Source of the DNA: a bacterium
Lineage (GTDB): Bacteria; UBA10199; 2-02-FULL-50-16; JAJFLM01
Direction of reading: 5' to 3'
Assembly: GCA_965216315.1 (NCBI GenBank)
Contig: CBDCFN010000016.1
Location: 64,001-128,000 of the forward strand
DNA length: 64,000 nucleotides
Both the position numbers and the translations under genes were made by a program. Of the stretch, positions 27,474 to 30,470 are shown piece by piece. The notes beneath the pieces were generated by a model that saw only the letters and a list, made by a program, of their open reading frames with translations, did no database searches and was not told the DNA's origin. Each line of letters starts with the position of its first letter. Positions within the stretch are counted from its first letter, which is position 1.

Positions 27474-30470
27474 TTATTCGCTCGAGTGTGCAGACATATA
27501 TGCGGTAAGTTTGTTTAGATCGATCCGGTCGGTCTCAATGAATCGCGGCATAGACAACCAGAAATAATCAAAAAAGGCTTCAGGTCCCAGGGCCTCTTGC
27601 CACAGTGACTCAAGGGCCACGGTATGTCGCTGGGGATCGCGCTTAATCAGGCGACGCGAGCGGTGGATCAGGTCGACGAGGCTCTGTGCCGTTTGGTTCC
27701 ATTCGCCGCTGATGGCGTAGGACTTGCGCAGTCCGATGAAAACGCGTTCCAACATCCGGTCCGTGCCCCGGCTAACTAGTGCCAGCATCTGTTCAGCGCT
27801 TGCGATATGCCTTTTAAGGGGTTCCGGATTAATATCCAATACGAACTTAGTCCCGTTCAAATAATCAATAGGGTTTTGCGGCGCTAAGGCCTCGGTCCAG
27901 GCCTGAATCAGCTGGTCGCGGTCTTGTATCCCATGATAATAAGCCAGTAGTTTCGCGAAGTCATGGCGCGCCGTTTCGCTCCCATGCTCTTTAAAGAAGA
28001 GGCGACGCTCTCTTTGCTCGCGAGCTAACATGTGAACCAACTTGACAAAAGCATTCGATCGGGAAAGGGGTCGGAGACCTTCGAAACTGGTTCTGCGCCA
28101 AAAAGGTTTCTCTATATACCCTGTAAATTGTTTTGAACGCGATGGATGACGCAGCTTACGCAGGGCTTTGGCCTCAATTTGGCGGATTCTTTCTCTTGAT
28201 ACTTCAAATTTATCTGCCACTTCATCAAATATGTAGTCGCGCCGCTTATCAATGCCAAAGCGCAATCGAATGACTTTTTCTTCGCGTGGCGTTAATGTCT
28301 TCAGGGCGCGAGGCACAAGGTCGGTTAGCTCTATCAAGTCATAAGCTTGATCCGGACTCTTTGTGGCGACAGGTTGGTAGCCAGTTACTGCGGCGGCATT
28401 TATCACGTCCTGAGCTGTACCCGTAGCAATTTCCTCGCACCAACCTGCTTTAAGTTCATGTTCGGCGAGGGCCTCTTCTAATGAGACGATTGCCTCTGCA
28501 GATGAAAACGGTGTCGTAACTGTAAAGACCGGCGAAAACAGCATGTCAGTAATGCGCTGGGTAACAGGAGAGTTTTTTTTAAGGTTAAACTTGCCGTTAA
28601 AAATATGGCTCCAGTTCACATAGGAAGCATGCCCTGTAAAGCCCAGTCTTCGCACGGCCTCGCGAATGGGCCCTATGCCCACCAGGTGAAGCGTCGAGCG
28701 TCGTATCAAGCGGATGAACTCGCGGACCTTGGGACCACCATCCTCTGACAGCGGATGTATATACTCAATTGCTTCCAGCGCATCTTGTTCCCAGACACGC
28801 AAGAGATCGTTAGGTTCAAGCCCCAAGCGTTTGGCTATCATGCGAACCTCATGAGTGGTTCTAGGTAAAGCCCCGTATAGATAACTATTAACCGTATCCA
28901 GATCGGCATCCAAGGCATTTGAGAGGGCCGTCATGTCACCCGCAAATCGCCCGGCCAACACATCCTCTAAGACTTTTTGTAACTGGCCTTCTTCATATTG
29001 AAAGCGGGTGGATTCCGTTGTAAAACGAAACTCCAAGCCGCGACGTGTTCCATGACGGGGTGTGAAAATTCGCCGCTTGACGATACTGTTGGATCGACCG
29101 TGATTTGGTCGAGGGATATTGAGCGGGTCATATTCGATTCCATCGGCGACACGATTCATAATATTAAAAAAGCGTGCGAGGTGCGCCATGTAATCGCGTG
29201 CACTCCCCGCGCTCTTCATTTCGATATTGAGGATCGTGCGTTGTTCTTCATCATCATGCACGCCCAAAGCGCGCCCCACTCGCTGCCCGTAGCGCCGTAA
29301 AGAGCTGCACTCGTAGTCATGGATGATGCCCTCGGTGCCACGGGCCCGATAACCGAAGGCGAGCATGCCGATGCTGATCAGCACCTTAACTCCGGAGCCG
29401 TCGCTATAGCCGGCAACGGCTTCGTCTAGTTCATCGTCCGGCATGCCCGAATAAATCGCTTTGGCGTAACCTTTGCCAAAACGGTCATTAAAGACCTGTT
29501 CATGGATTTGGGCGTGAAGAATCGACGAGGTAAAGAGTAAGGTTTTTTTGTCGTCGAGATGTTGTTGGTAGACATCCGCGACAGCCTGGCTCTGGATAAC
29601 AGAGGCATCGGGAATTTCGAGCCATTCATCCGATTTTTGGTGCAGGTGCGAGCGGATGATGACATCGTATTTTACGGAGAGTCCCTTGATCTTATGGAGG
29701 TAACCGCGTTCCATAAACCAACGTAGTCCCAGCGAAGAAATCTGTCGGCCGGTCCCAAATACTTTGTTCAATCGATATGGATCTGCGGTCAGTCCCAGTA
29801 AAAATTTTCCCGGATTTGCACTGATTTGTTGTTCTGAATCAAGAAAACCGAGATGCTCTAAGATTCGTTGCCAAGTCCCAGCCAGACTGAATGTCGCCTC
29901 GTCGATGACTACCAAAGCGAAACGGTCAGGATCCCATTGCTTGAGATTTTGTGCGCGTCCTAGAGTAAAGGCGCTGGCCAGGACAATATCATGCTTTCCA
30001 GTATAATCCTTGTGCTTGGCATCGATAATGCCGATACGCATTTGCGGTACGAATGATTGCAGGTCATCAAGGATCTGCTTGGTAATGATGCGATAGGGTG
30101 AGATCACCAGGGTCGTTTTGCCTGGAAAAATTTGTGCAGCGGCCTCCGCGAGGGGTCCGATGATCATTGTCTTGCCGGTCTGCGTGGGAGCGCGCATCAG
30201 AATGCGATCATGACCGGCTTGCATGGTCTCGACGACAGAATTTAATTGAGCTCGTTGATAGTCACGGAATTGGAGAATTGATTCGTCAGTAGCAGTGGCC
30301 TCTTCGAGAGGGGCCCAAAAACGAGGGATGCTCCATTCATGCGAAGCTGTGAGAAAAGAGGGTGCATTCCATCCCGATAGAAGGTGTAAGCTCTGTGGTA
30401 CCTGCCCAAGTATCGGAATAGCAATGGCCGGAGTTGCAAAAGGAATACTGATGGGTGCAATAAAACTCAT
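27474..30470 (-). CDS. SF2 (DEAD/DEAH, ResIII-like) helicase fused to an RpoD-like sigma-70 region 4
   Basis: [28 protein letters not shown]; later [39 protein letters not shown]. Start placed at ATG 30470, just downstream of the conserved promoter motif. Confidence 0.85.
   Translation of the reverse strand: [998 protein letters not shown]

Follow-up and report, generated by a model that had tools for sequence, protein, structure and literature searches.

The window analysed here is a stretch of 64,000 nucleotides from a contig of the bacterial assembly GCA_965216315.1 (GTDB lineage UBA10199; 2-02-FULL-50-16; JAJFLM01). On its minus strand lies a gene in which a superfamily 2 (SF2) helicase core is fused to region 4 of the primary sigma factor RpoD. 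The gene occupies a single unbroken open reading frame (ORF; 27474-30539), which encodes 1021 amino acids if counted from GTG 30539. The likely start is ATG 30470, which is used by the database gene call, gives 998 amino acids and also fits a promoter box that ends 8 nt upstream. Pfam analysis of the 1021-residue frame places ResIII at residues 89-255 (E = 4e-19), Helicase_C at 324-424 (E = 5e-4, below the cut-off) and Sigma70_r4 at 745-798 (E = 5e-16). The peptides on which the initial annotation had based the fusion are present in this one frame, and the architecture recurs in relatives. The lack of sigma region 2 described there is also borne out: neither Sigma70_r2 nor Sigma70_r3 gives a Pfam match in the fusion protein, and all five matches to PF04542 (region 2) in a genome-wide search lie outside the gene. 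One contig spanning 27000-31700, from a sample that is possibly the source of the assembly itself, shows no differences from the gene region, and in the same study a second sample yielded a contig that covers 27000-30056. Both cross the junction between the helicase and region 4 and, together with independent homologues, they rule out an assembly chimera. Of 963 phage records that matched the fusion protein in part, none reached 80% coverage, scans for sigma-70-type promoters and terminators gave results at chance level, and a search of the genome contigs for related loci with two queries returned no match. No description of the clade or of the architecture was found in searches of the open-access literature. 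The features of the locus are listed in Table 1.

Table 1. Coordinates of the fusion gene, its parts and associated features (those without a locus prefix refer to the window)
Feature	Position	Strand	Remarks
Whole gene	27474..30470	-	998 amino acids when read from ATG 30470; the open frame extends to GTG 30539
Sigma-28-type promoter	30478..30505	-	GCAAC 30505-30501, 15-nt spacer, CCGATAAG 30485-30478
Uncharged Pro/Ser/Ala-rich disordered leader, about 60 residues	30291..30470	-	No Sec-type signal; first charged residue E45; pLDDT about 30
RadD/IRC3-like SF2 core, two RecA folds	29121..30278	-	Pfam; best structural match RadD
Walker A, APTQTGKT	30168..30191	-	Gln at the position of RadD Gly34, Lys retained; RadD alignment, motif table
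Walker B, DEAT	29892..29903	-	Asp and Glu retained, His lost; motif table
Motif V	29337..29363	-	Canonical Asp replaced by Arg (57/60 in clade); motif table
Motif VI	29262..29285	-	Terminal Arg (RadD R343) replaced by Gly/Ala in 60/60; motif table
Two helical XRE/Cro-like segments, residues about 496-560 and 600-655	28506..28985	-	pLDDT about 90; family assignment a lead
RpoD-derived sigma region 4.1-4.2 and RHPSR tail	28110..28358	-	This copy has an intact recognition helix (SRERIRQIE)
C-terminal helical tail, about 210 residues	27477..28103	-	Not conserved in family; low pLDDT; no own-genome paralogue
Upstream co-oriented orphan, 271 residues	30600..31478	-	CAAC 31478-31475, CCGATAAG 31459-31452; uncharged leader
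Type III cluster	G000:C16:339083-360514		Internal FliA/WhiG-like sigma, FliO-like gene, several small genes without assignment
Shared N-terminal module, location examples	L108:5321-6073	-	G034 copies in L141-L160

The helicase core and its clade

The structural model of the core contains two RecA folds, and the Q motif, the Walker A lysine and the Walker B Asp-Glu pair of an SF2 ATPase are in place. A first prediction based on 4 sequences was poor, with a predicted local distance difference test score (pLDDT) of 45, and a second one based on 33 sequences was used. Its best match is RadD (Foldseek E = 2e-15; VIA Z-score = 30.9, root mean square deviation = 3.8, number aligned = 338). The whole fusion protein scores 53.7 bits against the RadD profile, for which the NCBIfam cut-off is 720.

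Relatives were collected with residues 80-720 as the query, region 4 being excluded, and were found in protein collections and in 25 of the 93 genomes of the class (at E 0.001). The 178 pooled candidates were reduced to 169 by removal of duplicates. A further 27 proteins were set aside because their core was incomplete, and 143 helicase cores from the remaining 142 proteins were aligned. Clade membership was defined by a glutamine at position 4 of Walker A; the 60 cores so defined, near-duplicates among them, form a single clade with a FastTree support of 1.0. Its distribution is patchy (13 of the 93 class genomes, in six families), and its members are non-syntenic and lie among housekeeping genes in the 17 loci listed. 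An N-terminal extension of at least 50 residues is present in 59 of the 60 members, as opposed to 1 of 60 short canonical helicases.

All 60 cores retain the Walker A lysine, the Walker B Asp-Glu pair and the middle arginine of motif VI. The last arginine of motif VI, which 80 of 81 canonical cores retain, is lost from every clade core and is a glycine in the fusion protein. The histidine of the DExH motif is kept in 79 of the 81 canonical cores and, according to the motif table, is lost in all but one clade member. Position 2 of motif VI is arginine in 49 of the 60. The core is under purifying selection, with dN/dS of about 0.2 in three congeners. In a study of RadD, G34E and R343A are each reported to abolish ATPase activity (PMC9821108). 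The term "translocase" in the initial annotation is thus doubtful, because both of these positions are changed in the clade. We take the core to be a putative DNA clamp that binds nucleotides, with a rewired but active motor as a less probable alternative.

Two relatives differ in layout. P0012, a helicase with canonical motifs and a C-terminal region 4, is a long-branch sister of the clade and possibly a separate fusion. The protein at L040:5374-9531 (-) in G046 carries a tandem pair of helicase-like cores in which every catalytic motif is degenerate, and both of its cores are placed inside the 60-core clade.

Modules shared with RNA polymerase

Region 4 of the fusion protein is of the RpoD type. 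Its top sequence matches in the Protein Data Bank (PDB) are RpoD/SigA (E = 2e-21), with RpoS much weaker. It is 54% identical to the RpoD of its own genome over 83 residues and 66% identical over a 64-column core, where 28 RpoD proteins of the class average 93%, which rules out a recent copy of the own rpoD gene. The description of this segment as near-intact must be qualified by these identities; the recognition helix is intact and the RHPSR tail is present. The identities of region 4 to the RpoD proteins of the class range from 26% to 75%, and the branches of the region-4 tree (87 columns) are long. The spacing between the core and region 4 is 234-323 residues in 19 members and 182-511 residues in four others, which may point to one old capture plus further gains. 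In three congeners dN/dS is 0.6-0.7 for region 4, compared with 0.2 for the helicase; such fast evolution would fit either tuning to a target or decay.

Domains of RNA polymerase (RNAP) are found in 46 of the 60 clade members: region 4 in 23, the C-terminal domain of the alpha subunit (alpha-CTD) in 24, one member having both. Among the canonical cores the corresponding count is 1 of 81 (P0012, with region 4). The alpha-CTD stands in place of region 4 in 1-9 copies per bearing member and occurs in two separate subclades. Pfam scans of 30 proteins and of 39 out of 150 matches, picked for length, independently confirm the domains of these arms. In RNAP, region 4 contacts the flap-tip helix as well as the -35 element (PMC9388147), and the alpha-CTD contacts upstream DNA via the 265 determinant (PMC1874639). 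The initial annotation had proposed sigma mimicry. Since relatives bear alpha-CTD repeats where the fusion protein has region 4, the idea is strengthened as one of RNAP mimicry. Region 4 itself is not strongly conserved in the family.

The stretches between the core and region 4 that had been described as helix-turn-helix-like (HTH-like) are confidently helical in the model, and their XRE identity is a lead only. Relatives P0151 and L043 give weak HTH_3 matches (E = 0.004 and 0.035, respectively), the fusion protein itself has no Pfam match to the HTH_3 clan, and the Atlas look-alikes are all XRE/Cro, with scores of at most 0.80. Searching the PDB with a profile of the middle region returned no HTH, only designed repeats and histone H3 at chance level. 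The C-terminal tails vary between relatives.

Promoter, leader and type III cluster

The regulon promoter claimed in the initial annotation is present as a sigma-28-type element, GCAAC-N15-CCGATAA, and the mRNA is probably near-leaderless because only 8 nt separate CCGATAA from ATG 30470. The -10 box of this promoter sits in a palindrome with a TATCGGCGCCGATA core (30478-30495). In the own genome, 127 of 2468 ORFs have CAAC-N15/16-NCGATA close to their start, compared with 8 when the spacer is of the wrong length, and the distribution of spacer lengths peaks at 15. The motif is found at 6 of 15 clade loci and at 6 of 9 long canonical relatives, to be compared with the same 127 of 2468 genes. 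It also heads lipoproteins and regulators; two DUF4423-type regulators in the window (33715-34599, -, and 41078-41926, +) have the motif and are each followed by a lipoprotein-like gene, the DUF4423 assignment resting on a scan of the first. The bipartite promoter with its CCGATA -10 box is accompanied by a candidate sigma of the FliA/WhiG (sigma-28) type, which is encoded within the type III cluster of the genome and scores 133 against a cut-off of 189.6, so that it is a diverged member of its family. The fusion gene is probably transcribed by this sigma.

The statement that the leader is uncharged was correct, as no Asp, Glu, Lys or Arg precedes residue 45. The leader satisfies all three rules for type III substrates of P. 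syringae given in PMC3338616 and is a candidate type III export signal. Among non-Sec genes of the genome, uncharged leaders occur in 46 of 107 that bear the promoter and in 173 of 1584 others. Further uncharged N-termini rich in Ser, Thr and Ala occur in the window among housekeeping genes (ORFs 31626-32966, +; 36057-37385, -; 39975-40772, -; 45349-46467, -; 47930-48991, +; 50152-51198, -); only the first two were scanned with Pfam, and neither gave a significant match. Elsewhere in the genome, a histidine ammonia-lyase-like gene (G000:C16:2234575-2236203) and a malic-enzyme-like gene (G000:C16:713776-715878) each have an added uncharged Ser/Thr-rich leader and a CCGATAA box upstream. Both functions are among the Pfam matches found in 8 of 31 leader or promoter genes of the own genome.

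The type III cluster contains homologues of sctV, D, J, L, N, O, Q, R, S and T in addition to the sigma gene. SctV, SctN and SctR score over the cut-offs for type III secretion systems (T3SS), and the D, J, L, O, Q, S and T homologues are mostly below them. A SctV match is present in 88 of the 93 class genomes, and no flagellin was found in the own genome, which is 98% complete. The genome encodes an export apparatus, and the fusion protein has an N-terminal compositional signal, itself a weak predictor, and no Sec peptide. Large orphans with uncharged leaders come after the cluster. In G076, a helicase with canonical motifs and HNH-associated repeats (L056:5864-8335, +) lies inside a type III cluster, between tetratricopeptide repeat genes that adjoin sctV and an sctD-like gene.

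In 24 of the 60 clade members the protein starts with a shared module of about 250 residues, which is carried by 72 ORFs of G034 and has 15 matches in G073 and 6 in G067. The promoter is found at 12 of 45 module ORFs, compared with 18 of 1330 background windows. Pfam matches were obtained for 15 of the 45 module cargos scanned and for none of the other 30; they are mostly bacterial cytoplasmic functions, including sigma regions 2-3-4, a histidine kinase, GGDEF with XRE (a diguanylate cyclase), biotin carboxylase, ketoacyl synthase, carbonic anhydrase, malic enzyme, two protein kinases and a helicase. Ankyrin, F-box and LRR domains are absent from these 45 cargos and from the 31 own leader or promoter genes, so that a workplace in bacteria is more likely than one in eukaryotes. 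The class also contains two further proteins of interest. That at L107:1422-4193 (+) in G012 (923 residues) has an uncharged leader, repeats and complete sigma regions 2-3-4, with the promoter a few bases ahead of its ATG, and that at L108:3455-6310 (-) in G032 (951 residues) joins the shared module to region 4 and has no helicase.

Proposed function and comparison with known systems

The clade of the fusion protein is real and undescribed, and its architecture, the motif changes, the exchange of RNAP modules, the promoter and the leader are established. As to function, we tentatively favour, with slightly less than even confidence, an exported clamp that binds DNA and RNAP and thereby dampens the housekeeping transcription of another bacterium with which the producer is in contact as a partner. 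The sigma-28-type promoter would drive the gene, probably via the FliA/WhiG-like sigma of the type III cluster, and the uncharged leader, or the shared module in relatives, would address the protein to the export apparatus. In the cytoplasm of the target, the XRE-like helices and region 4 (alpha-CTDs in relatives) would dock the protein at promoter-upstream DNA, at the RNAP flap or at both, as the roles of these domains in RNAP suggest. The RecA folds would then bind ATP and duplex DNA and work like a clamp or a slow switch, not like a processive motor, because the arginine finger of RadD is gone and mutants of RadD and DbpA suggest what its loss would do. As a net effect, a bacterium serving as prey or host would have its sigma-70 housekeeping initiation blocked or redirected. 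In favour of this reading stand the coordinated motif changes of the clade, the recurrent RNAP modules, the N-terminal extensions, the frequency of the promoter at clade loci and of uncharged leaders behind it, the sigma gene within the type III cluster, the shared module with its mostly bacterial cytoplasmic cargos, the proteins at L107 and L108 and the patchy, non-syntenic occurrence of the genes. With still less confidence, we suggest that the lineage may deliver pieces of the transcription machinery more generally, including clamps with region 4 or alpha-CTD and whole sigmas, into other bacteria through a needle-less type III system.

Several observations weigh against an exported clamp. 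Composition rules of the kind applied to the leader are weak predictors (PMC3338616). Lipoproteins and regulators have promoters of this class too, so that the class carries no implication of export. The type III cluster has no secretin, the only strong secretin of the genome adjoining a lone type II secretion (T2SS)-type ATPase away from the cluster, and no Tad/Kil pilus ATPase was found in the own genome, which has one pilus/T2SS-type ATPase over the cut-off; the outer-membrane route is unexplained. The shared module has no match in the own genome (G000) or in G012, and it could equally be a membrane tether. Neither RNAP arm is present in 14 of the 60 members, at least 3 of which are clipped by contig ends. 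In 33 fused copies of region 4, the base-reading residues, for which we assume the E. coli numbering and the role of R584 and E585, are kept to differing extents (R584 in 13, E585 in 18, R586 in 25 and Q589 in 26), so that the first two are variable. In the alpha-CTD repeats, R265 is kept in 35 of 78 copies, and the fast evolution of region 4 could reflect decay. As regards the core, the finger of DbpA is the arginine that this clade retains, and about 12% of the ATPase activity of DbpA survives the loss of the last arginine (PMC2248767).

That no outer-membrane conduit was found in the own genome also favours a function at home, an alternative that we regard as unlikely but not negligible. 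The protein would then be a stage switch that, under sigma-28 control, binds sigma-70 promoters or RNAP in its own cell and helps to shut down the growth programme, the leader or module being a membrane tether or a proteolytic tag. The FliA-type attack-phase programme of Bdellovibrio provides a precedent: in PMC3627812, its programmes are described as mutually exclusive and TTAAG-N16-CCGATA is found on 92 of 140 attack-phase promoters. The kinase, cyclase and sigma cargos of the module could all function at home as well. A core switch, however, is expected to be conserved and syntenic, whereas this gene is patchy and non-syntenic, its arms are swapped and its region 4 evolves fast; moreover, the leader or module is common to dozens of unrelated cargos.

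Less probable, though in line with the initial annotation, is a rewired but active double-stranded DNA translocase that region 4 guides to promoters, where it would strip or push RNAP, with new arginines in place of the finger. The catalytic residues retained throughout the clade, the new arginines of motif V and of motif VI position 2 and the purifying selection on the core are as this would predict, and RadD is itself reported to clear stalled RNAP (PMC9821108). The RadD mutants described above argue otherwise, as does a DbpA mutant of the equivalent last arginine, which cannot unwind (PMC2248767). The helicase-free protein with module and region 4 at L108 and the fully degenerate tandem core at L040 also speak against a motor.

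We see only a slight chance that the protein is a DNA reader of the defence or mobile-element type that now stands alone. Its region 4 matches MzaA, the alpha-CTD repeats of relatives match PglW, and an Atlas cluster of 141 proteins with ResIII and Sigma70_r4 is phage-dominated. These matches, however, concern single domains: no full-length match with cognate partner genes was obtained for MZA, Pgl or type I/III/IV restriction, and no nuclease domain was assigned to any of the 45 members bearing region 4 or alpha-CTD, as far as Pfam was run on them. PADLOC gave no match in the three immediate neighbours; at a distance of 4 kb, an AAA ATPase gave a match to PDC-S01. The neighbours in the 17 listed loci are housekeeping genes or leader-type orphans, as judged by BLAST against the own genome and not by a defence scan. 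A protein of the class that is of the defence-island type, with alpha-CTD, region 4 and HARE-HTH beside an HSP90-like ATPase (L109:2002-3633, -, in G059), lacks the promoter. Generic accretion of small DNA-binding folds from housekeeping genes, which bind non-specifically and now drift, has similarly poor prospects: the divergence of region 4 from class RpoD, its dN/dS and the HNH-associated repeats carried instead by canonical relatives would fit it, but the clade has repeatedly taken the two promoter-upstream modules of RNAP, and this copy retains the entire recognition helix.

If the broader reading, delivery of transcription machinery, is true, these proteins would rank with the first substrates to be identified for a needle-less type III system and would represent a new class of interbacterial effector, built on RNAP mimicry, that reprogrammes or silences transcription. 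Because the clade supplies candidates with names, along with a promoter and a candidate signal, the question of needle-less substrates can be tested in Myxococcus or E. coli. Export aside, an SF2 clade has undergone joint changes at four catalytic positions and exchanges one promoter-upstream module of RNAP for the other, and either outcome, a dead clamp or a new mode of ATP hydrolysis, would interest the helicase and transcription fields. With an export gate in 88 of 93 genomes, the findings also hint at the lifestyle of an unstudied phylum.

The fusion protein has region 4.1-4.2 and the RHPSR tail in common with RpoD. It has no region 2 and is not a sigma factor by its domain content; lacking sigma regions 1-3, it cannot open promoters. 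With E. coli RadD (YejH) and the IRC3-like and phage SF2 helicases (PHROG 16) it shares the fold and the layout of motifs Q, I, II and III. It differs in the change of the P-loop glycine to glutamine, the missing DExH histidine, the change of the motif V aspartate to arginine and the missing finger of motif VI, as well as in the added N-terminal leader, the XRE-like helices and the region 4 after the core; judged by the profile cut-off and the ATPase residues, it is not a RadD.

The FliA attack-phase regulon of Bdellovibrio bacteriovorus has in common with the present one the CCGATA -10 box and a scope far wider than flagella (PMC3627812). The present regulon differs in its GCAAC -35 box and in the position of its candidate sigma gene within a type III cluster, and the genome yielded no flagellin. 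The needle-less system of Myxococcus xanthus (T3SS*) acts at prey contact, its effectors are only proposed and the Kil/Tad pilus is its proposed conduit (PMC12075869). Both clusters have a sorting platform and an export apparatus, and no secretin, needle or translocon is apparent in either; here no Tad/Kil ATPase was found, and the fusion protein is a candidate substrate.

With MzaA, PglW and the phage ResIII-Sigma70_r4 helicases, the fusion protein shares the reuse of promoter-reading RNAP modules on ATPases. Those proteins belong to other helicase lineages and stand in a defence or phage context, and by the comparisons made the fusion protein is not one of the defence proteins listed. Among the proteins compared, only this clade has the rewired motifs, the leader and the sigma-28 promoter.

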